64,000 nucleotides of DNA from a virus. Both the position numbers and the translations under genes were made by a program. Positions 8,421 to 29,662 of the stretch are shown piece after piece. The stretch is from IMG/VR virus record IMGVR_UViG_3300031965_000018, positions 1-64,000 of that record. The stretch is one strand, 5' to 3'. Under the pieces are notes generated by a model that saw only the letters and a program-made list of their open reading frames with translations, was not told where the DNA came from and did not search any database. The stretch's first letter is position 1; every line of letters begins with the position of its first letter.

Positions 8421-8508
8421 TAGCGAGGCTCACAATGGCATCTAACAGCCATAGGAAGAAGCAGAAGAACGCTAACCACATCGCCGACATAAGGACCCAC
8501 TTGATCAT
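8413..8508 (-). CDS. possible 31-aa hydrophobic peptide between terminase and portal
   Basis: MIKWVLMSAMWLAFFCFFLWLLDAIVSLAND. ATG overlaps the TerL stop (ATGA) and the 3' end overlaps the portal start. Too short for the ORF track. Confidence 0.3.
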   Translation of the reverse strand: MIKWVLMSAMWLAFFCFFLWLLDAIVSLAND

Positions 8509-10525: not shown

Positions 10526-10924
10526 GGGTAAGCCCGAGTAAGGTGAGGTAAGGTGGAATTTCCCGAGCCTTTCTTATATACCTTACCTACCTTACCTACC
10601 TTACTCTTGTATATCTTCTAATAGGAGAGGTAGCGGGATTGGACGGTTAAGCGAAGATTAAGGGGAGACGGATTTTCCGTAATTCGGGAAGTGCGTAGGC
10701 AAAATGGGTAATTCCCGGTAAGGCGGTAAGGCGCTCAAATTTCCTAACGATTTTCACCACCCGCCTTACCCAAACTTTCACCTTACCTACCTTACCTACC
10801 TTACCCTTCTTTCTAAACATTTCCGACCTTACCTACCTTACCGACCTTACCCTCGCCGCGAAACATTTCGCCCGCGACCACCTTACCTACCTTACCTACC
10901 TTACCCTTCTTTCTGAACATTTCC
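10526..10924. repeat. iteron field built on GGTAAGG/CCTTACC (9-bp unit CCTTACCTA)
   Basis: Arrays at 10581-10604, 10781-10807, 10827-10852 and 10881-10907. Inverted copies at 10538-10555 and 10717-10733. A 46-bp direct repeat at 10779-10824 and 10879-10924 is spaced exactly 100 bp apart with 1 mismatch. Confidence 0.85.
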
Positions 10925-12997: not shown

Positions 12998-13135
12998 CTC
13001 TTGGCTGTCCACGAAATAGATATAGACACGGCTAGTCCTCCGTTGAAAGATGCTTGGGCCCCACCACCCATTGGGACTAGCAATGAGCAATAGGCGAGGT
13101 GCCTGGCCTTGGCACGCCCAAGCTGCTTGCCTCAT

Positions 13136-13962: not shown

Positions 13963-13986
13963 CCTTAGTGTATGTATGGAGGACAG

Positions 13987-16158
13987 ATGAGTGCAAAGCA
14001 ACCAACTCCCGTCCCACCCGGTGCGGTGAAACCACCGCCACCTCCTGCTCCACCGAAACCAAGAGATGGCACCATGCGCAGCCCTAGTCTCTTTGATGAT
14101 CTCGAAGATGAGCGGCGCGCGACGGAGGGCTGGGTGCCCGACGAACCGCCACAAATTGCGAGTCGTGGCGTCAAGCACATCGTCCTAAACTTTGAGACCA
14201 CTGGCCTGCGATGGTGGGACCGGGATCGGCCACTCGCGGCATCGGTTTGTTTCCCTGACGGCACGGCTCGCTACATCTCATGGGGTCACCGTGGTGGGAA
14301 CATCGCAGAAGAGACGGCCCGCCGATGGGCTCAACGCGAGTTGCGCGATCTGCATATCGAGAACATCAATACGCGCTTCGACGTGCACCAAGGCAAGACC
14401 TGGGGTATTGATCTTGAGGCGCAGAATTGCACCGTCTCAGATATTAGTCATTACGCGGCCCTGCTCGATGACCACCGCAAGACATTCAGCCTGGACCAGT
14501 TGATTCGAGACTTACTGGGTGAAGAGCCGATGGCGAGGCTAGACGAGTCTCGCATGGTAGACTATCACGCAGAGGAGGCCGCGCCTAGAGCGAAATACAA
14601 TGCTCAGATAGTGCGGCGACTGCATGAGGTAATGTGGCCGCGCATAGTGGCGGAGGATTTAGAGCGGGTCGTGGCACTCGAATCCAAGGTCATTTACCCG
14701 GTTTGCGAGATGGAGCGCAATGGCGTGCCCATAGACCTTGAACTCCTCGACCACTATCTCAAGGCATCAAAAGCCGCCTATGAGCGTTGTCTCTATGACC
14801 TCATCAAGCTCGTAGGGTTTCAGGTCGATCCAGGCAGCCCCACACACCGCAAGCGATTGTTCGAGCATCTCAAACTACCGTTGAGCTATTTAGGCTCGGG
14901 TCGCGCGTCCTTCACCGACGCGATCACGAAGGAACACGAGCACATCCCAGCCATCGCCCTACTGCGACAGGCCACGAAGATTGCGAGTATCCGCTCGAAA
15001 TACCTCTTGAAATATCAGAAGAACGCCGACAGCAACGGGATCATTCGCTACGCACTCCACCAGCTACGGGCGCAGAAGGATGAGCTCAGCGACTACGATA
15101 CTGGTGGCACCGTTACGGGCCGGTTCTCGTCTAGTGCCTTGACGACGGACCCGGATGGTGGGATAAACATCCAGCAAGTAATGAAAGCCTCAAAGCAACG
15201 CGTGGCGTTTGGCTATGAGGAAGATGACAACTCGCATGACGATGAGATTTACATTATTCGTCGGCTACACGTCCCGCCAAGCGGGCGTCAGTGGATGGCG
15301 TCGGATGCGATGCAAGAAGAATATCGCATCTTTGCGAGCTACGTCGGTAATCCAGCCATACTGGCAGCGTATCGAGAGAATCCCTTGATGAGCTTCCATA
15401 AGTATATGTGGGCGCGCGTCAAACGGTTCAAGCCGGACCAGACGTATCGGCAGCAGAAGGATCTCAACTTCGCCTACATCTATGGCGCAGGGATGCTCAA
15501 ACAGGCTCTAATGCTCGGGCATATCACGAAGTCCGAGTACGACGACATTAAGAAGACCCGGCGCTACGACCGGCGCTACGACCACCCCAGGTTGGAAGAG
15601 ACGCGGGAGGTTCGCCGCATCTATGAGCAGGAGATTCCCGAGGTCAAGAACCTGCTTGCTCTAGCGGCGCACATTGCGAAACCTGTTTGCGACAAGGACT
15701 GTTTCGACCCGCGCAACGCGGCCCTCATGCGTAGGCTGCACGACTCCGAGGAGCATCGTGGCTATGTGCGCACGATTCTCGGCCGACGCAGTCGGTTCCC
15801 GAATGGGAATCGGTTACACAAAGCCTTCAACTCGATTGATCAAGGCTCGGGCGCGGATATCATGAAGCAGAAGATCATAGAGCTTCACGAGGATCGACAT
15901 CGCACTGGGTTGACGCTTCGCTATACGGTCCATGATGAGCTAGATGGGGATATTCCGCAGGGAGCGGATGGGGAAGAGTCGTTGCGGTTGATTCATACTG
16001 TTTTGAACCAACAGTCGTTCCCACAATTGAAGGTGCCGATCCTGTGGGAAGTGTCGAGTGGGCCGACGTGGGCGGACTGTAAGGAAACGGAGTCGGAGTT
16101 TGCATCGTCGGATGCAGTGAAGTCGCTACTCGGTATTCACGATTCGCAGGATGAGTAA
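13987..16158 (+). CDS. family A DNA polymerase with 3'-5' exonuclease domain
   Basis: Exo I VLNFETTGL; motif A DAMQEEYRIFA; motif B KDLNFAYIYGAG; motif C YTVHDELDGD. SD GGAGGA precedes ATG 13987. Confidence 0.9.
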   Translation: MSAKQPTPVPPGAVKPPPPPAPPKPRDGTMRSPSLFDDLEDERRATEGWVPDEPPQIASRGVKHIVLNFETTGLRWWDRDRPLAASVCFPDGTARYISWGHRGGNIAEETARRWAQRELRDLHIENINTRFDVHQGKTWGIDLEAQNCTVSDISHYAALLDDHRKTFSLDQLIRDLLGEEPMARLDESRMVDYHAEEAAPRAKYNAQIVRRLHEVMWPRIVAEDLERVVALESKVIYPVCEMERNGVPIDLELLDHYLKASKAAYERCLYDLIKLVGFQVDPGSPTHRKRLFEHLKLPLSYLGSGRASFTDAITKEHEHIPAIALLRQATKIASIRSKYLLKYQKNADSNGIIRYALHQLRAQKDELSDYDTGGTVTGRFSSSALTTDPDGGINIQQVMKASKQRVAFGYEEDDNSHDDEIYIIRRLHVPPSGRQWMASDAMQEEYRIFASYVGNPAILAAYRENPLMSFHKYMWARVKRFKPDQTYRQQKDLNFAYIYGAGMLKQALMLGHITKSEYDDIKKTRRYDRRYDHPRLEETREVRRIYEQEIPEVKNLLALAAHIAKPVCDKDCFDPRNAALMRRLHDSEEHRGYVRTILGRRSRFPNGNRLHKAFNSIDQGSGADIMKQKIIELHEDRHRTGLTLRYTVHDELDGDIPQGADGEESLRLIHTVLNQQSFPQLKVPILWEVSSGPTWADCKETESEFASSDAVKSLLGIHDSQDE

Positions 16159-19582: not shown

Positions 19583-19971
19583 CCGAACATGAACTCTTAG
19601 CCGAGTGTCTCAAATCACTAACTCCACTAGTCGAGTCAAACGGTGGGGTAGTGATCAAGCATGCCGACGCTAGCACGGCCGGTATACCAGACGTATCAGT
19701 AACGGTCAATGGCCGCACCTCATGGTGGGAGTTCAAACATGCGAATCCGAGGGTCAAAGGCACCGAGCTACAGCGACTCACGGCCCGACGTTTGGCCAAT
19801 GCGGGTATCTGCTGGTACGTAGTCTATCAGACGCTACCCTCCGGTACCACGACCCATCTCGTGCGTCCATCCGCTGTGGGCGTGAACGGACATTTCCAGT
19901 CCGATCACTCGCACGCCGGGATCGACCACCGTTTTGTCGTTAATTTCATTTTGGAGCGTCATGCCGCCTAA
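19570..19971 (+). CDS. VRR-NUC domain nuclease (PD-(D/E)xK)
   Basis: GIPDVSV...SWWEFKH...ELQRLTARRLANAG matches the VRR-NUC D...ExK...Q pattern. It pairs with the SNF2 helicase further downstream, as in many phages. Confidence 0.6.
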   Translation: MVEMTEHELLAECLKSLTPLVESNGGVVIKHADASTAGIPDVSVTVNGRTSWWEFKHANPRVKGTELQRLTARRLANAGICWYVVYQTLPSGTTTHLVRPSAVGVNGHFQSDHSHAGIDHRFVVNFILERHAA

Positions 19972-20704
19972 AGTCCCATCCTACCTCCCGCGTCCGCTAC
20001 GGCGGGCGACTCCGGCCCGCCCGAGGGTTTACCCTACTCCGGCCGCGAACGGCCCGCCTACGGGCGCTCCGGCCGTTTCTCGGGCCTCTCCGGCTCGGCC
20101 CGTCTCGGCGTTCCGGCCCGCTCCGACGACGGCGGAAACGGGCGGGATCTTTACCTATACCGGCCGGCACATTTCGCCGCTCCGACTGCGCACGGAGGAC
20201 GTCTGTATCGAGGATATTGCCCACGGCCTGGCCTTGATGAATCGGTTCGTCGGTCAGACGCCACGGCCCATCTCCGTCGCACAGCACTCGGTCTACGTCA
20301 GTCGTCTTTGCGAGTCACACGGCCCACGAGTCGCCCTTCAAGCCTTACTCCATGACGCCAGCGAAGCATATCTGGGCGATATGTCGAAGTGGGTGAAGGG
20401 GATGCCGGAGATGGAAGGGTTTCGGAAGGCGGAAGCGCAAGCTCAGATGACTATCTATGAGTCGTTTGGACTATCGTGTCTAGAGCATGAGAGTATCGAG
20501 GAAGCAGACCGGCTCATGGTACGCTATGAGGCGTACGCGAGTTGGGGCGCGAAGATGCCGCTGTTCCTCCGGCCGCGCTATCCGGTGCCGACGAAGGAAG
20601 AATGCGAGCGCGTGGGGATGTGGCGACCGTGGACGTGGCTCATCTCAGAGGAAAGTTTTCTGAACCAGTTCAACGCACTCGTTTCGGACTTAGAAGACCG
20701 ATGA
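19961..20704 (+). CDS. HD-domain phosphohydrolase (YfbR-like 5'-deoxynucleotidase type) with Pro/Ala-rich N-terminal extension
   Basis: VAQHSVYV ... LLHDASEAYLGD is an H...HD...D metal motif. No alternative in-frame start lies between the GC-rich insert and the HD core. Confidence 0.6.
   Translation: MPPKVPSYLPRPLRRATPARPRVYPTPAANGPPTGAPAVSRASPARPVSAFRPAPTTAETGGIFTYTGRHISPLRLRTEDVCIEDIAHGLALMNRFVGQTPRPISVAQHSVYVSRLCESHGPRVALQALLHDASEAYLGDMSKWVKGMPEMEGFRKAEAQAQMTIYESFGLSCLEHESIEEADRLMVRYEAYASWGAKMPLFLRPRYPVPTKEECERVGMWRPWTWLISEESFLNQFNALVSDLEDR
19988..20150. repeat. GC-rich hairpin element, copy C (inside the HD gene 5' region)
   Basis: Shares 17 identical nt cgaacggcccgcctacg (20046-20062) with 62259-62275. 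Also has the same CCGCCTACGGGC-type modules as the 41.2-kb and 62.2-kb loci. Confidence 0.6.
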
Positions 20705-20765: not shown

Positions 20766-21890
20766 ATGAGAATCGCAGTCCTCTATTGGCCCACGACGTC
20801 TGTCGGCGGGATCGCTTCAGACCTTCTCAATTTGCGGTCGTGCGCTCTACGGAAGGGGCATACGTTCGATGTCTATCGGAGCGGTGACCTCTCGACGATT
20901 GAGCCGAGAAAGTTCAGAGAGCGGAAGCTGATTCGTGGCGGTGACAGCTTCATCCATATCGACGGAGAGGCATCGCACGCCAGTCGGCAGGTGCGCTACT
21001 CGGCCGATATGCTCAACCGTAACTACGACATCGTCATCCTGGGTTTCCTCTGCCCACATCCCAAGAAAGAGATACCTGAGCCGCGATTTTTGGAGTTACT
21101 CACGCGGCTGAAGATGCCGATTGTCGGCCGCGTGACAGATGGCTACTTCGATACGTATGCCGAGTGGGGCAAGCAGACACTCGCCCTATGCCAGCGCTCA
21201 ACGGTCGTCGTCCCGTCCTATGCGAAGCCACTGACGGATCGTGAGATCACGAACTTTGAAATCTACCGCGCGCCATTCGACGCCGAGGCATACGGGATCG
21301 ACTTAGAGGCAAAGCGCTCACCGACTGAGCTTACCATCTGGCCCAGCCAGCAGAAGAACATCAAAGGTTGGAACCCATTCCTGGAGATGCTCGCGGAGAT
21401 ACCCGGTGACGTAGAGATTTACAACTGCGGTATCCGCTACTACCAGACGCGCACATCAGACGAGTGGATTCGCGGCATCGGCAAGAATAACTTCCACCCG
21501 GAGTTCGGCGGCCTTGGGCGCCATACGTATTTCGGCTGGCAGACGCTCGACCATATGCGCAGTGAGGTCTACCCGCGAGCGTGGTTCATGGTAGACTTTC
21601 AAGGCATGGGAAAGCCACGCTATGAGGCGTATCGTCTTGGGTCCTACAACCACACGACGGTCGAAGCTCTTTGGTATGGGATGCTGCCGGTTCTGTATCA
21701 TACGTCGATGAACGCGGGATTGCCGCCTGAGGTATTCTTCGCGGTTGAGGAAGCGAGGGACTTCATCACGGACCATGACCGTGCCCTCGAACAATTCCAC
21801 GACGCGACACGACTAGCCCAGGCCCGTCAGTTCGTGCTCGATCACCACTCGGCCGATCATCAATTGGCCTATCTCTTGGGTGATCTGTGA
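20766..21890 (+). CDS. GT-B fold glycosyltransferase (GT1/GT4-like)
   Basis: The MRIAVLYWPTTSVGGIASDL opening and a C-terminal E...EALWYGMLPV block fit GT4-type enzymes. First gene of the coupled operon. Confidence 0.55.
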   Translation: MRIAVLYWPTTSVGGIASDLLNLRSCALRKGHTFDVYRSGDLSTIEPRKFRERKLIRGGDSFIHIDGEASHASRQVRYSADMLNRNYDIVILGFLCPHPKKEIPEPRFLELLTRLKMPIVGRVTDGYFDTYAEWGKQTLALCQRSTVVVPSYAKPLTDREITNFEIYRAPFDAEAYGIDLEAKRSPTELTIWPSQQKNIKGWNPFLEMLAEIPGDVEIYNCGIRYYQTRTSDEWIRGIGKNNFHPEFGGLGRHTYFGWQTLDHMRSEVYPRAWFMVDFQGMGKPRYEAYRLGSYNHTTVEALWYGMLPVLYHTSMNAGLPPEVFFAVEEARDFITDHDRALEQFHDATRLAQARQFVLDHHSADHQLAYLLGDL

Positions 21891-22618
21891 AAGTCTATAT
21901 CCCAACCATTGGTCGAGTGGACCGACAAGTAACGCTTGCAGCGTTGCCAGAGCGATGGAAAGAACGCACATGGCTCATTCAGCAGAATAGTGAGTCTCAT
22001 ACTCACCAGTATTTTTCTTGCCCAGTAACTCGCATTGCCCAGGTTCGTCAGTGGGTGGTAGAAGAAACTGAAGGCGAGAAGCTCTTGATGCTGGACGATG
22101 ATCTTCAGTTCTTTACACGAACAATCGAAGATCCAAGGCTACGTCGGGCGACTCCCGAGGAAGTAGGGATAGCGCTGGATATGCTCGACTCGTGGTTAGA
22201 TGAACGGGCTATGGTTGGGTTTGGCCCGGTCTTTATGAACCAGCAATATCGAGTGCCGTATATTGAATGCGCGAGAGTAGCGCACTCTTTCGGATTCCAG
22301 CGGAGTGTGTTACGTTCTGAAGGCATTCGTTTCACTGACGTCGTCTTTTCCGAAGACTTCCACGTCACGCTCTCTTTACTAGAGCGAGGTTATGCGAACC
22401 GAATAAGTACACTCAATGTAGTCAAACAGGTGAAGGAAGGTGCAAGTGGTGGCATTTCGACTTACGCTACCACAGAAATCCGAGAGGAAGCTAAGCAACA
22501 ATTTGCCGCTCTCCACCCGAAGACCGTTACACTTTACCATCGAGACGTGCCCGATCAATTCGGGATGACTCTTTCGTGTCGAATTGCTTGGAAGCGAGCG
22601 TTTGGAGTTGAACGATGA
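21887..22618 (+). CDS. GT-A-like glycosyltransferase (DxD)
   Basis: MKVYIPTIGRVDR... then LLMLDDDLQFF (DxD). Any relation to base-J/TET-associated DNA glycosyltransferases needs a profile search. Confidence 0.4.
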   Translation: MKVYIPTIGRVDRQVTLAALPERWKERTWLIQQNSESHTHQYFSCPVTRIAQVRQWVVEETEGEKLLMLDDDLQFFTRTIEDPRLRRATPEEVGIALDMLDSWLDERAMVGFGPVFMNQQYRVPYIECARVAHSFGFQRSVLRSEGIRFTDVVFSEDFHVTLSLLERGYANRISTLNVVKQVKEGASGGISTYATTEIREEAKQQFAALHPKTVTLYHRDVPDQFGMTLSCRIAWKRAFGVER

Positions 22619-23298
22619 TCGACCGTGAACTGTTGGTCTTAGCTTGCGGCCGTTCCGGCACGCTCTATACGTCAAAGGTCTTTCGCGCGGCGGGTTTCGA
22701 CCTACGGCACGAGCAGATCGGCGCATTCGGTTCTTCATCCATGTATATGGTACCGAGGGTCACGGATTGCTCCATTGTCAATGCGGGGCAGAAGGTGCCA
22801 ATTCACGCCGGGGAGAATCGAGCCGACTACCGTTTTAAACACGTCTGGCACCAGACGCGCCACCCGCTTCGCGCCATCGACTCCCTCGCAAAGTCATTCA
22901 CTCGGAAGGTTCGCCTTTGGACCGGGGAGCAGATTCGCTTTGCGATGCCTGGCCGCTCCACTGAACTCCAGTGCCCTATCGAGGATAAGATCCACTGGGC
23001 GATGCGCTATTGGTTCTACAACAATGCGTTTTGTGGGGTACAAGCCGAGTGGCGCTACCAGTTGGAGAACTTTCCATGGGGTGAGATGCTGGAGCGACTC
23101 GGGTATCAGTCAGGTCACCCGCTCCCGGTTATCCCAGCGACGACCAACCGCAACCTCCGCTTCGCATTCAAGAGCGCCGAGCAGGCTGCAATGATTCGAG
23201 AGACGATCTACGACACGACGTGGGAGACACTCGAACGAATCAACCCCTATCTAACAGATACGATTCGTAGGATGGCTCGGAGGTATGGCTATGAGTAA
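22615..23298 (+). CDS. sulfotransferase-like protein (P-loop-kinase-related fold)
   Basis: LVLACGRSGTLYTSKVF resembles the 5'-PSB loop and WHQTRHPLRAIDSL resembles the 3'-PB motif. There is no Walker lysine. A kinase cannot be excluded by eye. Confidence 0.4.
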   Translation: MIDRELLVLACGRSGTLYTSKVFRAAGFDLRHEQIGAFGSSSMYMVPRVTDCSIVNAGQKVPIHAGENRADYRFKHVWHQTRHPLRAIDSLAKSFTRKVRLWTGEQIRFAMPGRSTELQCPIEDKIHWAMRYWFYNNAFCGVQAEWRYQLENFPWGEMLERLGYQSGHPLPVIPATTNRNLRFAFKSAEQAAMIRETIYDTTWETLERINPYLTDTIRRMARRYGYE

Positions 23299-23860
23299 GA
23301 TTCTCGCCATCGAGCCGCACGCCGACGATCTGTTCATCTCGGTCGGATGGACACTTGACGCAATGATTAAGGCCGGGCACGAAGTGACGACCTTGACCGT
23401 CTTTGGAGACGAGCGACGACAGAAGGAGGCGCAAGAATACGCGCGACTGCTTGGGGCCGAGCACCGAGCCTTACAACTGCCGGAGTCTGGGTCCATGGAT
23501 GGCGAAGTTGACAAGCGAGCATTACACGACGCCATAGTCGCACTCGATTCTAGCTTTAGCCAGATCTTTGACCAGGTTTGGTGTCCGCTCGGTATCTACC
23601 ACGAAGAGCATAAAGCTGTACGTCGAGCGGTAGACACCTTATTCAAGAATCCGATCTATTACCTCGACATGCCGTATGCGGTGAAAGAGAAGAACCGCAT
23701 CGAGGCAAATGAAGCCATAAGGAAGCGACACGTGATCTCTCTCATCGCACCCACGCCGCGCAAGTGGAAGGGCGCGGAGTTGATCTTCAAGTCACAATCC
23801 GCGTTCTTTCACTTCGAGCGGGATAACCTATTGCGCTGTTGGGAGATGTTGGTGCGATGA
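23291..23860 (+). CDS. PIG-L / LmbE family N-acetylglucosaminyl deacetylase
   Basis: ILAIEPHADDLFISVGWTL, GHEVTTLTVFGD and YHEEHKAV correspond to the family's AHPDD, G-x-x-V and HxDH motifs. SD GGAGG lies 7 nt before ATG 23291. Confidence 0.6.
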   Translation: MSKILAIEPHADDLFISVGWTLDAMIKAGHEVTTLTVFGDERRQKEAQEYARLLGAEHRALQLPESGSMDGEVDKRALHDAIVALDSSFSQIFDQVWCPLGIYHEEHKAVRRAVDTLFKNPIYYLDMPYAVKEKNRIEANEAIRKRHVISLIAPTPRKWKGAELIFKSQSAFFHFERDNLLRCWEMLVR

Positions 23861-24033
23861 TCAACATCTATCTCCGCTGCCCGAGTTGCGCTTACGTCTG
23901 GCACGCCACGTCGGTTGTTGAGGGCGCGTGGTGGGCGCCGAAATACCCGGAGGTTGACGCGAGATTCCAGTGCTACTGCCCGAAGTGTAGTGCCGCGCCG
24001 CCGATGGAACTTGAACGGACGGAGAATCAATGA
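23857..24033 (+). CDS. small zinc-ribbon protein
   Basis: MINIYLRCPSCAYVW...QCYCPKCSA has CxxC...CxxC. ATGA-coupled at both ends. Confidence 0.4.
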   Translation: MINIYLRCPSCAYVWHATSVVEGAWWAPKYPEVDARFQCYCPKCSAAPPMELERTENQ

Positions 24034-24614
24034 CCGTAGCAGACCGCATCGAGAACTACCATGCCGTGACCGGGTTTCCCGAGTCGTTGTTTGCCTCTGG
24101 TGACGGGCGCATCTGCGGCGTGTGGATCATGGGTAATGACTATCGCGTGAAGTCCACGTTCTATGGAGGATACCCGGCCGGTTACTTGCGGCGCGTTCGC
24201 GCTCTATTCCCTGAGAAGCAGGCCGTCTTGCACTTATTCTCGGGTCGAGTGGACACAGAAACGATGCCTGGCAAGACGGTCGATATCAATAGTGACTTGG
24301 CGCCGGACTACGTCGATGACGCGCAGACGCTCACACAAGTGCCTCTTGAAGATTTTGACCTCGTGTTAGCCGATCCTCCCTATTCGGTCGAGGACGCTGA
24401 TCATTATCAAACGACGATGGTGAAACGGAACGTCGTGATGCGCGTTCTCGGGCAACGGTTGCGACCAGGCTCTCACGTAGTTTGGCTCGACCAAGTACTC
24501 CCGATGTATCGCAAGGACAGTCTTAGCTTATACGGCGTCATTGGAATGGTGAAGTCCACGAATCATCGTTTCCGCGTCGTATCGATTTTTGAGCGAATTG
24601 GAGAGACATGTTAA
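24030..24614 (+). CDS. DNA methyltransferase (N6-adenine/N4-cytosine type, DPPY)
   Basis: Motif IV LVLADPPYS and motif I-like VLHLFSG. Compact, 194 aa. Confidence 0.6.
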   Translation: MTVADRIENYHAVTGFPESLFASGDGRICGVWIMGNDYRVKSTFYGGYPAGYLRRVRALFPEKQAVLHLFSGRVDTETMPGKTVDINSDLAPDYVDDAQTLTQVPLEDFDLVLADPPYSVEDADHYQTTMVKRNVVMRVLGQRLRPGSHVVWLDQVLPMYRKDSLSLYGVIGMVKSTNHRFRVVSIFERIGETC

Positions 24615-25582
24615 CCGAAGCACCAGAGTCACTGTTCTGGTATTGGATAAGTGAGAGACATTCCATCTACCTCCGGCGCGCGGCCGGGTTGCCGAAGCCA
24701 TGGACCGACGATCCGATCTTGCAGCAGTACAAGTTCACCAATCCGTTTCGTGAGAACGACCGAGGGACGGTGTGGTTGCGCGAGAACTTTCTGGAGCCGC
24801 ATCGTATACCCGACGAGACGTGGAGCGAGCTTGTTAAGATCGAAACGATGCAGCACGGTCGATTGAGTCACTACTCGAAATCAGAATGGCTATCCTTACT
24901 TGCCTTCAACATCGCATGGTACAGAATGTTCAACTGGTGGGGCACCGGCCGTCTCCTCGGGTGGCAGACCGATTGGGATCCGGCAGCGGTCATCGAGACA
25001 CTGACCCAAGCAAGTCTTCGCGGCGAGCAGGTTTTCACCGGCGCGCATATCGTCTACAGCCCGCCAGGACGGCCGAAGATCGACGCCATCGTGGACGTCT
25101 GCTCGGCACTCTATGATCTAACAGTTACGCAACGAGAGCTAGTCATCGACCCGCCGCACCATCGCTCGTTTGTCGAAGCGTGTCGCGCGTATCGATCCTT
25201 GGAGCGAGCCTTCTATTGGCTTCAATCCGTCTATTGCGTCGGCGGGTTCATGGCTTATGAGATGGTCACCGATATGCGGCATACGCGGCTCCTTGAGGAC
25301 GCGACGGACATCATGACGTGGGCCAATATGGGGCCGGGTGCGAAGCGTGGCTTGACGAGACTTGGACTCCCGGCGCGGAACCAAGATGAGGGGTGCGAGT
25401 CGATGCGTGGCCTCTTATCGAGGGCAAATACACAGCTTCCGGTGAATCATCCGGCAGCTGATTGGCCTACTCCCGAGATGCGCGATATCGAACACAGCCT
25501 GTGTGAATTCGATAAGTATTGCCGCGTGAAGTTCGGAGAAGGCAAGCCACGGTCAATGTACCCTGGGAGGAAGAATGACTAG
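24608..25582 (+). CDS. aGPT-Pplase-like protein (alpha-glutamyl/putrescinyl thymine pyrophosphorylase family)
   Basis: I recognise WYWISERHSIYLRRAAGLPKPWTDDPILQQYKFTNPFRENDRGTVWL as the characteristic N-terminal signature of this thymidine-hypermodification family. Needs HMM confirmation. Confidence 0.5.
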   Translation: MLTEAPESLFWYWISERHSIYLRRAAGLPKPWTDDPILQQYKFTNPFRENDRGTVWLRENFLEPHRIPDETWSELVKIETMQHGRLSHYSKSEWLSLLAFNIAWYRMFNWWGTGRLLGWQTDWDPAAVIETLTQASLRGEQVFTGAHIVYSPPGRPKIDAIVDVCSALYDLTVTQRELVIDPPHHRSFVEACRAYRSLERAFYWLQSVYCVGGFMAYEMVTDMRHTRLLEDATDIMTWANMGPGAKRGLTRLGLPARNQDEGCESMRGLLSRANTQLPVNHPAADWPTPEMRDIEHSLCEFDKYCRVKFGEGKPRSMYPGRKND

Positions 25583-26651
25583 TCGTATTGTCGCCGTTGA
25601 TGTGAGGGATATTCTCCCTAATCCCTATCGTAATCTTGATAAGTATGTTTTAGACGCCACGAAGATCGATGCGCTTAAGCAGAGTTATGAGACTAGTGGC
25701 TTCTGGGATGGGTCAATTCAAGCACGGCCAAGTCCGACGATTCCAGATAAGTATGAGATTGCCTTTGGACATCACCGTATTGAGGCCGCTCGGATCAAAG
25801 GTATCACTCCAGTTGGGCTCGTCGTGTCTCAACGCTCGAATGCCGATATGCTCCGCATGATGGCCCACGAGAACAGCACCGACTTCCGCAACGACATGCG
25901 CCCGACGATTGAAACCATCCGCGCCGTCATCGAGGCATATGGCCGTGGGGAGATTGAGTTGGAGGTAATTACGGGACACGGAGCTAACCAGCAACAATAT
26001 AGTTTACCGAGCGGTAAACATTACTCCCTCGCAACCGTCGCCCGCTTCCTCAATTGGGTAAAAAATAGTGACAACCAGGCCACCACCGCATGCCGCGTGG
26101 CGTTTGATGCCTATCGGGAGGAAGCGGCGTCGGCGGAGGCGATTGAGCAGTTGGGTGGGAAGGAAGCCACTGAGACCGCGATCCTCGCCATTAACACGGC
26201 CATTCGCGCGGCGCGAGTGTCGGCACATGAGAAGGGATTGACTCCCTCACAAACCCGACAAGCTGAAAAAGCGGCAGCAGAAGCAACAGCGAACGCTATA
26301 CATAACTATGGAGCTGCCCGAGGTCGCGGTGAAGCCGTCTCGGCGGGTAAGGCGGCGGTAGATGCTATCGTTGGAAAGAAGAAACCGAAGACGGTGCCGG
26401 TTGAATTCTACATCGCTACCGTCAATAGTAAGAGTCTCGCCTATAACGCCTATGGAGAATTCTTGAAGCAGTGCGACGTGTTGTTACCCGTGTTAGAGCA
26501 CGTCCGACCGGAGGCCAAAGAAGCCCTAGCAGCGGCACTAGAGAGAATGCTTGAGCGCACGACTCAACCCGTATCTGCCCTCATCCGTGCCCTGCGTGCA
26601 GAAGACGTAGAGCAATTAACAAGGTTGCTTTCCAAGGAGACTTCGTCATGA
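25575..26651 (+). CDS. ParB/sulfiredoxin-like N-terminal domain protein
   Basis: ILPNPYRNL and YEIAFGHHRIEAARIKG form a GxxR-type ParB box. The long helical, Ala-rich C-terminus overlaps both neighbouring genes. Confidence 0.6.
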   Translation: MTSRIVAVDVRDILPNPYRNLDKYVLDATKIDALKQSYETSGFWDGSIQARPSPTIPDKYEIAFGHHRIEAARIKGITPVGLVVSQRSNADMLRMMAHENSTDFRNDMRPTIETIRAVIEAYGRGEIELEVITGHGANQQQYSLPSGKHYSLATVARFLNWVKNSDNQATTACRVAFDAYREEAASAEAIEQLGGKEATETAILAINTAIRAARVSAHEKGLTPSQTRQAEKAAAEATANAIHNYGAARGRGEAVSAGKAAVDAIVGKKKPKTVPVEFYIATVNSKSLAYNAYGEFLKQCDVLLPVLEHVRPEAKEALAAALERMLERTTQPVSALIRALRAEDVEQLTRLLSKETSS

Positions 26652-27283
26652 GAGAATCTATGCGATCGATTGGTGATATTGCTCAGAGAACCAGAGAGAC
26701 ACGAGATATCATCGATTACCCCGACGGTACTATTGCGTGGGGGGAGCTTACTCGTGTAGGTACATACTACTTCCGTACTACGAAAGGTCGAGACAGACTT
26801 TTGCTCCCGCTCGATGACCATAACCCGTGGCGCGACCGTGGAGATCAAGGCCATCGGGTTTCCAATATAGACTTAGCTGTCTTGATTGTAAACTCTCACC
26901 GAAAGTCAGACCACCTGAGTTACGAGGAAGATTTGCGAGTCGTTAAAAAGGTATTACATGACGCTTATAAATCGGTGATTGAAGTCGTTACTAACCTAGG
27001 AAATACCGTCATTGCCGTAGATGCTGAAGGTATGGCGTTAGGAGTCGAGGGCAATACTAACCCACAAGCAGGATTTGACCTAGCAGATTCTCCTGCGGGA
27101 CGGGCGCTTAAAATGCAAAAGATTGCCTCACTCGGAGGATCAGCGAAACGTGTGAATCGCGACATCGAAAGTCTGCGTGCACCAGAACCAAAGCTAGACG
27201 AACTCTATGGGGTAAATCAACTCGTATCGGGGGCAGCAGCTCAAGTATTGTACAACGAGAACAGATATGAGGATGACTTGTGA
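26648..27283 (+). CDS. hypothetical protein within modification operon
   Basis: 211-aa track ORF, ATGA/GTGA-coupled. No motif recognised. Confidence 0.5.
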   Translation: MRESMRSIGDIAQRTRETRDIIDYPDGTIAWGELTRVGTYYFRTTKGRDRLLLPLDDHNPWRDRGDQGHRVSNIDLAVLIVNSHRKSDHLSYEEDLRVVKKVLHDAYKSVIEVVTNLGNTVIAVDAEGMALGVEGNTNPQAGFDLADSPAGRALKMQKIASLGGSAKRVNRDIESLRAPEPKLDELYGVNQLVSGAAAQVLYNENRYEDDL

Positions 27284-28293
27284 TCACCCTCCGCGTCCGC
27301 AACGTCCACGAGGCACTCCCCGTCGCCATCGAGTTACTCCATCGCATCGGCATCCGGCGCGAGTCTCGCAACGGGCCAGTTCTCCAGTCGCCCGAGCCGG
27401 TCGCCACGGTATATGAGCATCCGACTGAGCGCGTCATCTTCTGGCCCGAGCGGGATGCGAATCCATTCTTGCATTTGTACGAGAGCCTGTGGATGCTCGC
27501 CGGGCATAATGACCTCGCACCATTGCTCCGGTATACAAAACGGTTCGCAGAGTTTTCCGACGACGGCGAGACGCTGCACGGAGCGTATGGGTATCGGTGG
27601 CGGAACCATTTTCGTATCCAGGCAGTGAAGAGCGAGTACCATAAGACGGACCAACTCTCCGTCATAGCCGAGCAGCTCAAAGCGAATCCCGAGGATCGCC
27701 GGTGCGTTCTGGGCATGTGGGACCCGGAAGCCGATCTTGGCCGCCAGGGCAAGGATCTGCCCTGTAACGACACCGCCACGTTCCAGATCGGCCCAGACGG
27801 GCGTTTGAACATGGTCGTCTTCTGCCGCTCCAACGACATCGTCTGGGGTGCCTACGGCGCGAATGCCGTCCACTTCAGCTATCTCCTCGAATACATGGCC
27901 GCGTGGATCGGCGTCCCGGTCGGCACGTATACGCAGGTCAGCGTCAACTGGCACGCGTATCTAAAGACGCTAGAGCCGGTGCGGAAGTTGAATCTGGCGT
28001 ATGGTGACCCGTATGGAAGTGGGCGCGTCCTCTCGCACTCGTTACCGTCAGCTGCTTTCGCCGGAGGTATCGAGGTCATCGACCGTGACATCTCCGAGAT
28101 TTTGCGGCAAGCTGATAGCGGTGAATGGAATGAGTGGACGGTGAAACTCAGCTGGTCCGCAAGCGTGATCTACATTCTTCATATGCACCATAACTGGAAA
28201 ACCAGAGGGCGTGCCTGGACTCTCAAATACGCCATACCCGTCGATGATTGGTCACTAGCCGCTATCGAGTGGCTGGAACGGAGGAAGGCGTGA
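27280..28293 (+). CDS. thymidylate synthase (ThyA) family enzyme, candidate deoxypyrimidylate hydroxymethylase
   Basis: ESLWMLAGHNDL, HGAYGYRWRNHF, DQLSVIAEQLKANPEDRRCVLGMWDP, catalytic DLPCN, FCRSNDIVWGAYGAN and NWHAY. There is about 70 aa of extra C-terminal sequence. Confidence 0.8.
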   Translation: MITLRVRNVHEALPVAIELLHRIGIRRESRNGPVLQSPEPVATVYEHPTERVIFWPERDANPFLHLYESLWMLAGHNDLAPLLRYTKRFAEFSDDGETLHGAYGYRWRNHFRIQAVKSEYHKTDQLSVIAEQLKANPEDRRCVLGMWDPEADLGRQGKDLPCNDTATFQIGPDGRLNMVVFCRSNDIVWGAYGANAVHFSYLLEYMAAWIGVPVGTYTQVSVNWHAYLKTLEPVRKLNLAYGDPYGSGRVLSHSLPSAAFAGGIEVIDRDISEILRQADSGEWNEWTVKLSWSASVIYILHMHHNWKTRGRAWTLKYAIPVDDWSLAAIEWLERRKA

Positions 28294-29005: not shown

Positions 29006-29662
29006 ATGAGAATCTCTTCCAAACGCCAATTCTTCGCCCTTTGGCGCGAGGGAGTCCTGGGGAACCGGACGTTGCTCTGGGATACGGTCGAGGAAGCCCT
29101 TGCCTACCGGCCTTCGGTCGCGCGTATCGGTTTCCGCGAACTGGGGAAGGCGGGCGGTGGGGCGTGGGAACTGGCGGCCCGTAGCGAGGCCCGTAGCGTC
29201 TCGGATCGGTGGCGCGCGGAAGGCCGGACGTTTATCCTGGACGGCTCGGTGCCGAACGATAAGAGCACGATGCAAGGCGAAGTCTGTCGGACGACGCGCG
29301 GGTTGGAAGGCTATCTGTGTTTTCGCAACTTCTTCCGAGTGCAATTCCCAGATCGCGGAGTCTGCGAGTTCAGTGGAGTCTATACGAACTTGAAACCTGG
29401 CGAGGGAGTAACGGTCCAACCGCTCACAGAACCGGGACTCCCGCCTATGCGCCAGACACTAGCACGAGGGCTCCATCGTCACTTCAGCTACGTCATGACG
29501 CGCTATCTCTTGGAGCGATACATGGACCCGTCTAGCCGCGATGACCTCGATATGCTTCTGGAGCAATACCCGGATGCGACCGTCGAGTTCACGTGCTTCA
29601 GCGTCAACGTCGGATTGTTTCCGAGGCGCAATACCATATTTTGGGAAGTGAGATCGTATTGA
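29006..29662 (+). CDS. hypothetical protein
   Basis: 218-aa track ORF after a 160-nt noncoding gap. No motif recognised. Confidence 0.5.
   Translation: MRISSKRQFFALWREGVLGNRTLLWDTVEEALAYRPSVARIGFRELGKAGGGAWELAARSEARSVSDRWRAEGRTFILDGSVPNDKSTMQGEVCRTTRGLEGYLCFRNFFRVQFPDRGVCEFSGVYTNLKPGEGVTVQPLTEPGLPPMRQTLARGLHRHFSYVMTRYLLERYMDPSSRDDLDMLLEQYPDATVEFTCFSVNVGLFPRRNTIFWEVRSY

Follow-up and report, generated by a model that had tools for sequence, protein, structure and literature searches.

Which modification do four overlapping genes in the replication operon of a tailed phage produce, and on which molecule? The initial annotation of this locus, part of the 64,000-nt viral DNA analysed here (the window), listed two glycosyltransferases, a protein with PAPS-binding-like loops and a PIG-L deacetylase, and proposed an amino-sugar, possibly sulfated, on a hydroxymethylpyrimidine in DNA, or alternatively the decoration of a virion protein or host envelope glycan. 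Gene identities and context support the DNA version, which is still a prediction: four coupled genes in a hydroxymethyluracil cluster predict an amino-sugar-bearing replacement of thymine, with sulfate as a possible addition. Such amino-sugar or sulfated DNA chemistry is absent from the literature searched, in which no sulfotransferase was found in phage DNA hypermodification pathways either.

Gene organisation and the predicted hydroxymethyluracil cluster

The window carries the markers of a tailed phage (large terminase, portal, tape measure, primase-helicase and DNA polymerase A). All four open reading frames of the block at 20,766-23,860 are present as annotated, with neighbouring genes overlapping by 4, 4 and 14 nt, in order, which suggests translational coupling. 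Stop and start codons overlap, and neither terminators nor promoters are in excess inside the block. It is located in the replication operon near genes for a thymidylate-synthase (TS) homolog, an HMUDK_hel protein and an HD nucleotidase (Table 1). The modification genes have the DNA polymerase gene on one side and those for HMUDK_hel, a ParB-like protein and the TS homolog on the other.

Table 1. Features of the four-gene block and its companions in the window
Feature	Coordinates	Strand	Length (aa)	Basis
ORF1, GT-B fold glycosyltransferase, predicted DNA 5-hmU HexNAc transferase	20766..21890	+	374	AF2, Foldseek and context
ORF2, TAGT-family GT-A glycosyltransferase	21887..22618	+	243	Pfam PF20691, phrog_842
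ORF3, sulfotransferase-superfamily protein (predicted)	22615..23298	+	227	Motifs, family profile, Foldseek
ORF4, PIG-L/LmbE-family zinc de-N-acetylase	23285..23860	+	191	Pfam PF02585, BshB1 TIGR04001
HD-domain deoxynucleotide monophosphate phosphatase-like protein	19934..20704	+		phrog_318
Stand-alone HMUDK_hel protein	24608..25582	+		Pfam PF18723
Thymidylate-synthase homolog, dUMP hydroxymethylase signature	27280..28293	+		phrog_5131, Pfam Thymidylat_synt
Conserved protein without Pfam domain, 3' of TS homolog	29006..29662	+		Orthologs in hmU phages

The TS homolog matches phrog_5131 (E 4.9e-107) and Pfam Thymidylat_synt (E 3.4e-22), and is 58% identical to gp51 of PaMx11, a phage carrying an established 5-hmdU-derived modification (PMC8989533). 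In E. coli numbering, it has D at 143, C at 146, D at 169 and N at 177, as do all module orthologs. According to the diagnostic residue rules for TS homologs drawn from PMC13326640, the retention of Asn at 177 (N177 of E. coli ThyA), together with Asp at 143 and 169, points to 5-hmU and not to hmC or 5-hydroxy-C. Of the two bases covered by the proposed hydroxymethylpyrimidine, hmU is thus retained and hmC dropped. Based on these residues, we infer that the TS homolog would be the source of 5-hmdUMP.

Three further companions belong to this cluster. The HD protein (phrog_318, E 2.6e-42; weak YfbR-like and HD_3 matches) is also encoded in L029 (49% identical), L132 and L134, and in L132, L134 and PaMx11 the TS homolog is followed by HD genes. 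It is probably a pathway accessory that depletes the canonical nucleotide pool. The HMUDK_hel protein (PF18723, E 5.5e-48), a paralog of amino acid:DNA transferases with a DNA-glycosylase-like helical fold, is 35% identical to PaMx11 gp50, which is flanked by the genes for the 5-hmdU kinase and the TS homolog. It is a conserved companion of 5-hmU pathways; its M6 counterpart, gp55, is dispensable in vitro (PMC8989533; gene table PMC5889632). The conserved protein 3' of the TS homolog has orthologs in all six sulfotransferase-bearing loci (see below) and more than 600 homologs, none with a Pfam domain. It follows the TS homolog in a large hmU-phage lineage, directly so in the AADT-type loci L144 and L145, and probably acts at the nucleotide level rather than being specific to the trio.

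Enzymes of the four-gene block

Sequence-level searches with ORF1 gave no match. Its AF2 model (pLDDT 94.7) has a GT-B fold, for which the best PDB match in Foldseek is the T4 alpha-glucosyltransferase (AGT) bound to DNA (1y6f, E 1.1e-12, TMq 0.69), followed by BshA, PimA and MshA. Sequence identity with T4 AGT is only 12-13%, and one ORF1 homolog carries a Glyco_transf_4 domain. Judging from the model, ORF1 is a structural sibling of T4 AGT and of the UDP-GlcNAc-using GT4 enzymes BshA and MshA, and it is predicted to be a DNA 5-hmU HexNAc (probably GlcNAc) transferase performing the first committed step. T4 AGT itself uses UDP-glucose as donor; a HexNAc donor is proposed for ORF1 only because of the de-N-acetylase present and the GT4 neighbours. 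ORF2, with an LDDD (DxD-type) motif, scores above the gathering threshold of Pfam TAGT (40.8 bits against 27.5, E 3.1e-10) and matches phrog_842 (E 2.5e-28), so that both glycosyltransferase assignments are confirmed.

The annotated AIEPHADD and HEEH peptides are present in ORF4, and the assignment to PIG-L holds: it reaches 34.9 bits against PF02585 (E 2.5e-8, cutoff 28.2) and also matches BshB1 TIGR04001 (E 1.2e-5). The zinc site is intact, with H12, D14, D15, H106 and H109 invariant in five PIG-L orthologs. A public gene call places the start of ORF4 at 23,291. By profile, ORF4 matches Dbv21 and Orf2*, both GlcNAc-pseudoaglycone deacetylases (E 1e-7), as well as BshB1 (6p2t, E 2e-4). Teicoplanin Orf2*/Dbv21 and BshB1 deacetylate a GlcNAc set earlier by a GT-B enzyme, after which the amine is decorated. 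ORF4 is predicted to turn the DNA-linked HexNAc into a free amino sugar.

Direct sequence searches with ORF3 itself found nothing in Pfam, PHROG, NCBIfam or the PDB, and it stays below every curated threshold. The peptides ACGRSGTLYT and RHPLRAIDS, annotated as PAPS-binding-like, are both found. They correspond to a 5'-PSB-like loop (C11-G-R-S-G-T16) and a 3'-PB-like element (R82-x-P84-x5-S90), while H32-E33 is a candidate base. Across 127 relatives, R82 and P84 are invariant, and R13, S14, G15, T16, S90, H32 and E33 are conserved in at least 90%; these PAPS-type motifs are not chance strings. The family comprises 3609 representatives at E<=1e-3. Among the 127 relatives, Sulfotransfer_3 is matched by 65 (best E 1e-7), Sulfotransfer_4 by 14 and Sulfotransfer_1 by seven. 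The family profile matches the CurM sulfotransferase (ST) 4gbm over both motifs (GcgRSGT with PRSGS, VRHPLkvIsS with VRHPYSVIES). For the AF2 model (pLDDT 90.5), CurM ST and SULTs lead the Foldseek PDB matches, yet weakly (E 0.026, TMq 0.41). In BFVD, where sulfotransferases rank highly too, a giant-virus capsular polysaccharide synthesis protein domain (E 5.9e-10) is the best match and is accompanied by many viral sulfotransferases. Structure and profile analysis thus gave no reassignment to an unrelated fold, and ORF3 is predicted to perform PAPS-dependent sulfation of the DNA-linked sugar, on N or O.

It is unlikely that ORF3 instead resembles P-loop kinases or has no catalytic role, for instance as an accessory that binds nucleotides or presents DNA, with glucosaminyl-hmU, with or without a second sugar, as the product. 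Apart from the missing above-threshold match, this is suggested by the weak Foldseek E-values, with UMP/CMP, adenylate and shikimate kinases interleaved among the PDB matches, and by AAA_18 matches in the family. However, the latter concern two of the 127 relatives against 65 for Sulfotransfer_3, the Walker-A lysine is missing from the loop (CGRSGT instead of GxxxxGK[ST]), and the invariant R-x-P-x5-S aligns with the 3'-phosphate-binding element of CurM ST. In addition, an APS kinase gene lies directly upstream of one relative (L018). A tblastn search with this APS kinase found no PAPS-synthesis gene in the window, so the predicted sulfation would rely on host PAPS.

Co-occurrence, acceptor and proposed pathway

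ORF1-type GT-B genes were compared across 17 independent phage loci. PIG-L is present in 16 of these, and HMUDK_hel and a hydroxymethylase-type TS homolog are both found in the flanks of 15, often as immediate neighbours of the GT-B gene and in varying gene order. Six loci carry a sulfotransferase-like gene (an ortholog at least 44% identical), each time with GT-B and PIG-L, and only four carry a TAGT (the window, L003, L030 and L141). Occurrence is nested, with GT-B alone in L134, GT-B and PIG-L in L132, L133 and L136-L143, and all three in the six ST-bearing loci, from which an order of pathway steps can be read. GT-B and PIG-L are the widespread conserved core, whereas the sulfotransferase and the TAGT, an optional second glycosyltransferase, are add-ons. 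The restriction of the sulfotransferase to a PIG-L-containing subset fits a deacetylate-then-decorate logic, short of proving N-sulfation; since the six ST-bearing loci have backbone genes in common (u218, partly MazG and CsrA), their co-occurrence may partly reflect shared ancestry and not function. The GT-B of L133, with PIG-L adjoining, carries a fused SAM-methyltransferase domain, suggesting an alternative tailoring of the unmasked sugar.

According to a second reading, which we consider quite unlikely, ORF3 acts on the base side, either by O-sulfation of the 5-hydroxymethyl group as leaving-group activation or by sulfating an amine or hydroxyl common to several thymidine hypermodifications. 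In the activation version, its function would be analogous to that of the 5-hmdU DNA kinase, with later displacement possibly via HMUDK_hel. One relative (28% identical) indeed lies in an amino-acid-type thymidine cluster (L006/L039: HMUDK_hel, P-loop kinase, radical SAM, AADT, PLP enzyme, ST and amidoligase), where the acceptor cannot be a sugar because the cluster is sugar-free. Moreover, the STs of both DNA-cluster types have an insertion in common that is missing from head-module relatives, the window retains HMUDK_hel without a P-loop 5-HMUDK or AADT, and CurM ST, the nearest solved relative, is an activating sulfotransferase. On the other hand, L006/L039 already has a P-loop kinase, so that its ST is not needed for activation, and HMUDK_hel accompanies GT-B even where ST and kinase are missing (L134 and the ST-less loci). 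Wherever a GT-B locus has an ST it also has PIG-L, a pattern not easily squared with a bare hmU substrate, and a sulfated hydroxymethyl would compete with glycosylation for the same oxygen.

The ORF3 family is not intrinsically DNA-directed, as some relatives belong to the head modules of phages and others are encoded on bacterial chromosomes, chlamydial ones included. Relatives fused to GT92/GT2 and capsule-synthesis domains point to glycan acceptors. Nevertheless, the least probable reading is that the trio decorates a non-DNA target (such as glycans of virion proteins or of the host envelope, or a bacillithiol/mycothiol-style GlcN metabolite) and lies in the replication operon incidentally: distant ST relatives between portal and major capsid genes, adjoining GT2-type glycosyltransferases, the capsular polysaccharide protein as best BFVD match and the resemblance of GT-B and PIG-L to the small-molecule enzymes BshA and BshB1 are outweighed by the HMUDK_hel and TS association in 15/17 loci of varied gene order, a DNA glucosyltransferase as best structural match of the GT-B, a companion GT-A of the TET-associated DNA glycosyltransferase family, the position in the operon described above, and placement in a structural module in 0/17 loci. 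DNA is thus supported as the target over the virion or envelope glycan.

With modest confidence, we favour a post-replicative DNA hypermodification built on 5-hydroxymethyluracil, in which T is replaced, HexNAc is added and deacetylated, sulfate is attached in a subset of phages and the TAGT provides an extension. Based on signature residues and homology, the TS homolog would make 5-hmdUMP, the HD phosphatase would help to deplete the competing nucleotide, and the family-A polymerase would incorporate hmU for T. Given its fold and conserved context, the GT-B would flip hmU out of duplex DNA and attach to its 5-CH2OH an N-acetylhexosamine, in all likelihood GlcNAc donated by UDP-GlcNAc. The PIG-L/LmbE enzyme, by its family, intact zinc site and near-obligate pairing with GT-B, would then remove the acetyl group, leaving a primary amine in the major groove, which is chemically what the known thymidine hypermodifications derived from amino acids or polyamines arrive at. 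In the weakest step, drawn from motifs, remote homology and nested occurrence, the sulfotransferase-fold protein of a phage subset including the window phage may transfer sulfate from host PAPS to the DNA-linked glucosamine, with the deacetylated amine (GlcNS, the heparan NDST logic) or a hydroxyl as the site. Finally, the TAGT GT-A may add a further sugar, the acceptor being either the first sugar or hmU in a different sequence context. The phage would probably gain protection from restriction and from other defences that target nucleic acids.

Comparison with known systems

As in T-even hmC glucosylation, a TS-family hydroxymethylase would provide a hydroxymethylpyrimidine nucleotide that is incorporated in replication, and a GT-B, in the window one matching AGT best (E 1e-12, TM 0.69), would glycosylate the base within duplex DNA. 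Extension by another glycosyltransferase can follow, as with the T2/T6 second-sugar transferase (phrog_842 annotation). In contrast, the base is hmC there and hmU here, and the prediction for the window sugar is N-acetylation followed by tailoring through a deacetylase and a sulfotransferase-like enzyme, both missing from T-even phages.

Base J (beta-D-glucosyl-hydroxymethyluracil) of kinetoplastids and the phage TAGT systems also place a sugar on a pyrimidine hydroxymethyl in DNA, and ORF2 is a Pfam TAGT member. However, hmU in the window would come from a nucleotide-level hydroxymethylase and not from a JBP/TET dioxygenase, a family absent among the window ORFs scanned with Pfam, and the conserved glycosyltransferase is the GT-B, the TAGT being optional (4/17 loci). 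To our knowledge, amino-sugar and sulfate tailoring is not known for base J.

The 5-HMUDK/AADT thymidine hypermodification phages M6, ViI, PaMx11, PhiW-14 and SP10 (PMC5889632, PMC8989533) have the dUMP-hydroxymethylase homolog, HD phosphatase and HMUDK_hel paralog in common with the window, and a primary amine in the major groove is expected as end product in both. The window amine would differ in being that of a deacetylated amino sugar, linked O-glycosidically instead of by displacing a phosphate; the window yielded neither a P-loop 5-hmdU kinase nor an AADT, a PLP enzyme or a radical-SAM enzyme. SP-15, YerA41 and Carin-5 have T-derived bases with sugars, some anionic (PMC5977210, PMC12686479), and in Carin-5 glycosyltransferase genes share a block with one for a predicted GlcNAc N-deacetylase. 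These modifications are set apart by a dihydroxypentyl linker and phosphate, the annotation of the Carin-5 enzyme is polysaccharide deacetylase and not PIG-L, and a sulfotransferase is not reported for them.

The initial comparison with heparan NDST survives as an analogy of logic, namely GlcNAc deacetylation followed by PAPS-dependent amine sulfation, and both have a PSB-type loop and the PB-type element R-x-P-x5-S. It does not extend to homology, which is undetectable beyond the sulfotransferase superfamily, with no NDST chain among the listed matches of the PDB sequence, profile and fold searches. Furthermore, the window activities are separate small proteins, the deacetylase is LmbE-type and the sulfation may be on N or O.

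The same enzyme pair, in the same order, operates in the bacillithiol (BshA/BshB), mycothiol (MshA/MshB), teicoplanin/A40926 (tGtf with Orf2*/Dbv21) and GPI (PIG-A/PIG-L) pathways. In the window, the predicted acceptor is a DNA base instead of malate, inositol, a glycopeptide or phosphatidylinositol, and the next enzyme is sulfotransferase-like, not a ligase or acyltransferase. In these pathways GlcNAc is added by a GT-B and the acetyl group is taken off by an LmbE zinc enzyme, usually followed by decoration of the amine. The top structural matches of the window GT-B include BshA and MshA, and Dbv21, Orf2* and BshB1 are the top solved relatives of its PIG-L.

Organization of the operon carrying ORF1-ORF4

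The window is a tailed-phage genome, in which the four-gene block at 20766-23860 (ORF1 to ORF4) lies inside a long plus-strand operon of replication and nucleotide-metabolism genes. Successive genes of the block overlap by 4, 4 and 14 nt, and a promoter and terminator scan returned promoter-like and terminator-like sites within it at chance frequency only. Along the window, the GC skew reverses sign near 12-14 kb and again near 40-42 kb, and these turning points match the switches in coding strand from structural and packaging genes (minus) to the replication operon (plus) and on to the tail genes (minus).

Main features of the window and of the operon around the four-gene block
Feature	Position	Strand	Remarks
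Portal	7056-8420	-	
Large terminase	8505-10025	-	
Primase-helicase	10901-13135	-	
Family-A DNA polymerase	13972-16158	+	first gene of the operon, followed by several small ORFs
HD nucleotidase	19934-20704	+	phrog_318, E 3e-42; directly before the four-gene block
ORF1, GT-B glycosyltransferase fold	20766-21890	+	
ORF2, TAGT	21887-22618	+	
ORF3, sulfotransferase-like (ST)	22615-23298	+	
ORF4, PIG-L	23285-23860	+	
Small ORF, paired Cys motifs (Zn-ribbon-like)	23839-24033	+	after the four-gene block
DNA methyltransferase, DPPY motif	24030-24614	+	phrog_3816, E 5e-43
HMUDK_hel protein, stand-alone	24608-25582	+	PF18723, E 5.5e-48
ParB_N-like protein, 358 aa	25575-26651	+	
211-aa protein, no family match			between HMUDK_hel and the TS homolog; overlaps the ParB_N-like gene, the ORF pair spanning 25575-27283
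Thymidylate-synthase (TS) homolog	27280-28293	+	phrog_5131, E 5e-107
Conserved protein, 218 aa	29006-29662	+	
RNase T-type exonuclease and SNF2 helicase			in the operon after the 29006-29662 gene
Tape measure protein, 1553 aa	57516-62177	-	

For the small ORF after ORF4, the public gene call has 58 aa and the longest ORF 64 aa. The 211-aa protein gave no Pfam or PHROG match, and neither its ORF nor the ParB_N-like gene is conserved in the other loci carrying the module, i.e. GT-B and PIG-L, in part with ST and TAGT, and with HMUDK_hel and the TS homolog close by. ParB homologs were recently demonstrated to be activators of phage thymine dioxygenases (PMC13229309). Since N6_N4_Mtase or MT-A70 methyltransferases are found near other module loci as well, a second, methyl-type DNA modification is likely in these phages.

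Identity of the four proteins

ORF4 passes the gathering score of the PIG-L/LmbE family (PF02585; 34.9 bits vs 28.2, E 2.5e-8), and its zinc and catalytic motifs, EPHADD (H12, D14, D15) and H106-E-E-H109, are invariant in all five orthologs, in agreement with the initial annotation, which had named a PIG-L deacetylase from AIEPHADD and HEEH. In solved enzymes, PHLDDA and HPDH stand at the aligned positions. Profile matches include Dbv21, Orf2*, BshB1 and diacetylchitobiose deacetylase, the nearest solved relatives being the GlcNAc-pseudoaglycone deacetylases Dbv21 and Orf2*, plus BshB1.

The two glycosyltransferases expected in the block were also recovered. ORF2 matches Pfam TAGT (PF20691) above the gathering score (40.8 bits vs 27.5) and has a DxD-type motif of GT-A enzymes (LMLDDDLQF). 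No TET/JBP partner was detected among the window ORFs scanned with Pfam, so the 'associated' part of the TAGT name does not apply here. For ORF1 and ORF3, direct sequence searches gave nothing useful; information came solely from expanding the families and predicting structures. ORF1 had no sequence or profile match in Pfam, PHROGs, NCBIfam or the PDB, including hmmsearch against the PDB with small alignments; one of its homologs carries a precomputed Glyco_transf_4 match. The AF2 model, based on an alignment of 28 homologs (pLDDT 94.7), has a GT-B glycosyltransferase fold. The seven best PDB matches in Foldseek are all T4 alpha-glucosyltransferase, several of them DNA-bound (E 1e-12 to 4e-11, TM 0.64-0.69; among them 1y6f, 1ya6, 1y6g, 1xv5, 1y8z), followed by the retaining GT4 enzymes BshA, PimA and MshA. 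At 12-13% identity to the T4 enzyme, ORF1 is not a sequence-level member of GT4 or of GT72, the CAZy family of T4 alpha-glucosyltransferase-like DNA GT-B enzymes.

ORF3 alone likewise gave no match in Pfam, PHROG, NCBIfam, PDB phmmer or PDB hmmsearch with small alignments, and no profile match reached a curated threshold. Its family comprises 3609 representatives at E<=1e-3 in a 50%-clustered library. When 127 relatives were scanned singly (E<=1), 65 matched Sulfotransfer_3 (best E 1e-7), 14 Sulfotransfer_4 and seven Sulfotransfer_1, with at most four matches for the next families; the Sulfotransfer_3 matches link the ORF3 family to this clan, though not as a curated member. The best-conserved positions of the family are two PAPS-type elements and an H-E pair. 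The first element is the loop C11-G-R-S-G-T16, which has no Walker-A GK[ST] and in which R13, S14, G15 and T16 each recur in 90% or more of the 127 relatives. The second, R-x-P-x5-S, has R82 and P84 without exception and S90 at a conservation of 90% or more. The H-E pair, H32-E33, follows the loop at a distance of about 17 residues, reaches at least the same 90% level and is a candidate catalytic base. The family profile matches the CurM ST (4gbm), aligning GcgRSGT with PRSGS and VRHPLkvIsS with VRHPYSVIES, segments that correspond to those with which PAPS-dependent sulfotransferases bind the 5'-phosphosulfate and the 3'-phosphate.

The AF2 model of ORF3 (pLDDT 90.5) has CurM ST, SULT2A1, SULT1B1 and TPST2 as top PDB fold matches, all weak (E 0.026-0.15, TM 0.34-0.41) and, in Foldseek, interleaved with P-loop kinases, the ancestral source of the sulfotransferase fold. 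A search of BFVD returned one strong hit (E 6e-10), to a domain in a giant-virus protein of capsular polysaccharide synthesis, together with numerous viral entries labelled 'sulfotransferase'. Relatives of ORF3 were found fused to GT92/GT2 and capsule-synthesis domains, and one directly follows an APS kinase gene (L018:7134-7874, on a phage contig). Given these motifs and remote matches, ORF3 is most probably a member of the sulfotransferase superfamily, outside any curated family, and PAPS use by its product is likely. That ORF3 is not a sulfotransferase at all is unlikely: the lack of a curated match and the weak fold matches would fit such a reading, but the motifs, the balance of the remote matches and the neighbouring APS kinase speak against it. 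Structure and profile searches did not reassign 22615-23298 to an unrelated fold, the outcome that the initial annotation had named as refuting.

Another candidate, ORF3 as the missing 5-hmdU kinase domain partnering HMUDK_hel, was rejected as the main reading. The Walker-A lysine is absent, sulfotransferase matches outnumber kinase matches, and HMUDK_hel accompanies GT-B in loci without any ST or kinase.

Relatives of ORF3 with 27-32% identity (L110-L131) are chromosomal in many metagenome-assembled genomes (MAGs) of Parachlamydiaceae and other Chlamydiae, and others occur in MAGs of Verrucomicrobia, Planctomycetes, Synechococcus and Pseudomonadales. In one intermediate relative of 446 aa, P0048 (L146:912-2252), the whole ST-like domain is tandemly duplicated; for P0048 and a second intermediate relative, P0050, gene context comes from short contigs only. 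Searched against 50,697 GenBank phages, neither the region (megablast) nor ORF3 (tblastn) gave a match; no cultured phage among them carries an ORF3-type sulfotransferase.

Conservation of the module and predicted identity of the modified base

On contigs long enough to be read, the close orthologs of ORF3 (44-63% identity; loci L029, L003/L004, L030, L027/L028 and L001/L002) all lie in the same module, with GT-B, PIG-L and ST, and with HMUDK_hel, the TS homolog and a 29006-type gene (homologous to the 29006-29662 gene) nearby. ST and PIG-L come in either order among these loci, and TAGT is missing in some. A search from the GT-B side added L132-L134 and eight IMG/VR contigs (L136-L143). Of the resulting 17 independent GT-B loci, 16 carry PIG-L, the exception being L134 with GT-B, HMUDK_hel and the TS homolog only, and 15 have both HMUDK_hel and the TS homolog inside the fetched flanks. 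TAGT is present in four. ST is found in six, never without PIG-L, although these six are not fully independent evolutionary samples because backbone genes are also common to them. Such nesting, with PIG-L added to GT-B and ST added to both, would be expected from a linear pathway of glycosylation, deacetylation and tailoring. Judged from gene content, the GT-B and PIG-L core is a fairly widespread and seemingly undescribed route, predicted to lead to an amino-sugar base. A phage contig of 100 kb (L133:8001-9770) has GT-B with a SAM-methyltransferase domain fused to its N-terminus (PF13489, E 3e-7); PIG-L comes next, and the arrangement suggests a methylated amino-sugar variant of the modification.

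The TS homolog was numbered on an E. coli ThyA reference sequence in which the diagnostic residues fall at the published numbers. It has D/C/D/N at positions 143/146/169/177, as do five module orthologs and PaMx11 gp51; Cys146 is the catalytic residue, Asn at 177 goes with uracil, and an acidic residue at 143 with the access of water. As published, N177D indicates dCMP use, L143D/E hydroxymethylation and D169N 5-hydroxy-dCMP synthesis (PMC13326640). Because positions 143/169/177 are D/D/N, the TS homolog is, by these rules, a dUMP hydroxymethylase. It is 58% identical over 247 residues to gp51 of PaMx11, a phage whose modification derives from 5-hmdU (PMC8989533). The HMUDK_hel protein of the window is 35% identical to PaMx11 gp50, which is encoded between the 5-hmdU kinase and the TS homolog. 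Its counterpart in M6, gp55, is dispensable for amino-acid transfer in vitro (PMC8989533; PMC5889632).

Neither a P-loop 5-hmdU kinase nor an amino acid:DNA transferase (AADT) was found in the window by Pfam or by tblastn with the kinase and AADT of L006, a sugar-free thymidine hypermodification cluster. In contrast to the thymidine pathway of 5-hmdU DNA kinase (5-HMUDK) and AADT, the window keeps the HMUDK_hel paralog alone and falls outside that pathway. A stand-alone HMUDK_hel, itself an AADT paralog, is kept in glycosylating hmU phages that have neither 5-hmdU kinase nor AADT; its function must therefore be independent of the kinase pathway, e.g. in hmU recognition or presentation.

The 29006-29662 protein has more than 600 homologs with conserved motifs GEFGNR, QGEV, PMR and WEVRxY; no Pfam, PHROG or PDB match was obtained, also with the family profile against the PDB. 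Its gene always comes directly after that of the hydroxymethylase-type TS homolog, including in AADT-type clusters (L144, L145), and the protein is probably a nucleotide-level partner of the hydroxymethylase. By HMM, a 29006-type gene is present in 6/6 ST loci vs 0/11 ST-less GT-B loci, a correlation reflecting lineage rather than function, because the family also occurs in AADT-type clusters. An ST-specific role was rejected given its more than 600 members and its position after the TS homolog in those clusters.

Proposed pathway and comparison with known systems

Beyond the identification of the genes, we infer the following steps. Based on its signature residues, the TS homolog would convert dUMP to 5-hmdUMP, and the phage polymerase would incorporate hmU for T. 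GT-B would then transfer a HexNAc, probably GlcNAc, onto the hydroxymethyl group on DNA, as its fold, its conserved context and the de-N-acetylase encoded alongside indicate. PIG-L would expose the free amino sugar, in line with its family membership, intact active site and near-obligate pairing with GT-B. ST could subsequently sulfate the sugar on N or O, which is the weakest step, and TAGT may add another sugar. Host PAPS would be the donor for ST; tblastn with the L018 APS kinase detected no PAPS-synthesis gene in the window. GT-B enzymes and LmbE deacetylases are paired to the same effect in the biosynthesis of bacillithiol, mycothiol, teicoplanin and GPI, where the amine, once unmasked, is usually decorated next. 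Because of this precedent, and because ST never occurs without PIG-L, N-sulfation is slightly favoured over O-sulfation.

A relative of ORF3 with 28% identity (L006:4825-5499, on the same contig as L039:8001-8657) belongs to the sugar-free cluster, in the order HMUDK_hel, P-loop kinase, N6/N4 methyltransferase, radical SAM, AADT (PF18724), PLP enzyme, ST and amidoligase. Sulfation may thus also tailor amino-acid-derived thymidine modifications. In the alignment, this ST and those of the GT clusters share an insertion that is missing from relatives in phage head modules; in ORF3, the insertions specific to the clade fall at about residues 45-75 and 95-120. Distant relatives of the latter kind lie between portal and major capsid genes (L018:7134-8558; L015, L011, L013 and others among L007-L023), adjoining GT2-type or other glycosyltransferases and methyltransferases, which hints at sulfated virion-protein glycans or another non-DNA target.

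Our tentative proposal, which we hold with somewhat limited confidence, is a sulfated amino sugar on 5-hmU, in its sharpest form an O-linked, heparan-like GlcNS, with the same ST clade acting as a reusable tailoring module that also serves sugar-free thymidine hypermodifications such as that of L006/L039. ST might instead act base-side, or on a feature common to different thymidine hypermodifications; the sugar-free relative and the insertion common to both kinds of DNA cluster agree with this, but the L006/L039 cluster already has a kinase and ST depends on PIG-L in the GT-B loci, making it rather improbable. A target other than DNA for the initially described trio, to which the head-module relatives with their nearby GT2 enzymes would point, is improbable, because GT-B has an AGT-like fold and is consistently found in an hmU context.

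Phage DNA hypermodifications are a main escape route from restriction and other DNA-targeting defences, and the enzymes involved serve DNA labelling and epigenetic sequencing. If the proposed pathway is correct, unmasking of the amino sugar would provide a primary amine in the major groove by a second route, independent of the known one. In a subset of the phages, sulfate would come on top. DNA would thereby gain a new chemical class, with its first natural modification to bear sulfate, and ST would be the first PAPS-dependent enzyme with DNA as its substrate. A DNA-directed set of GlcNAc transferase, deacetylase and sulfotransferase would also be of use for site-selective hmU tagging. The prediction is directly testable, the genes being small and hmU-DNA, UDP-GlcNAc and PAPS obtainable, and a comparative series is at hand in at least 17 natural variants whose gene contents are nested.

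The initial annotation likened the block to heparan sulfate NDST. Deacetylation followed by sulfation holds as an analogy of logic, but homology does not: deacetylase and sulfotransferase are separate genes here, and no NDST chain is among the matches listed in PDB sequence, profile and fold searches. In the literature searched, no sulfotransferase or LmbE deacetylase was found in a phage DNA hypermodification pathway, and neither enzyme is mentioned in the phage DNA glycosyltransferase preprint, the T-dioxygenase paper or the 5-hydroxycytosine paper. In phage Carin-5, a glycosyltransferase block beside the polymerase has a predicted GlcNAc N-deacetylase of the polysaccharide-deacetylase type (PMC12686479). 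This is the nearest hint in that literature. By its predicted functions, the module can be classed as a form of phage post-replicative pyrimidine glycosylation. To our knowledge, the known pyrimidine hypermodifications are either plain glycosylation of hmC, 5-hydroxy-C or hmU, or transfer of amino acids or polyamines to phosphorylated hmU. The pathway proposed here would add a third logic, in which a masked amine is installed as GlcNAc, unmasked by an LmbE enzyme and then tailored.
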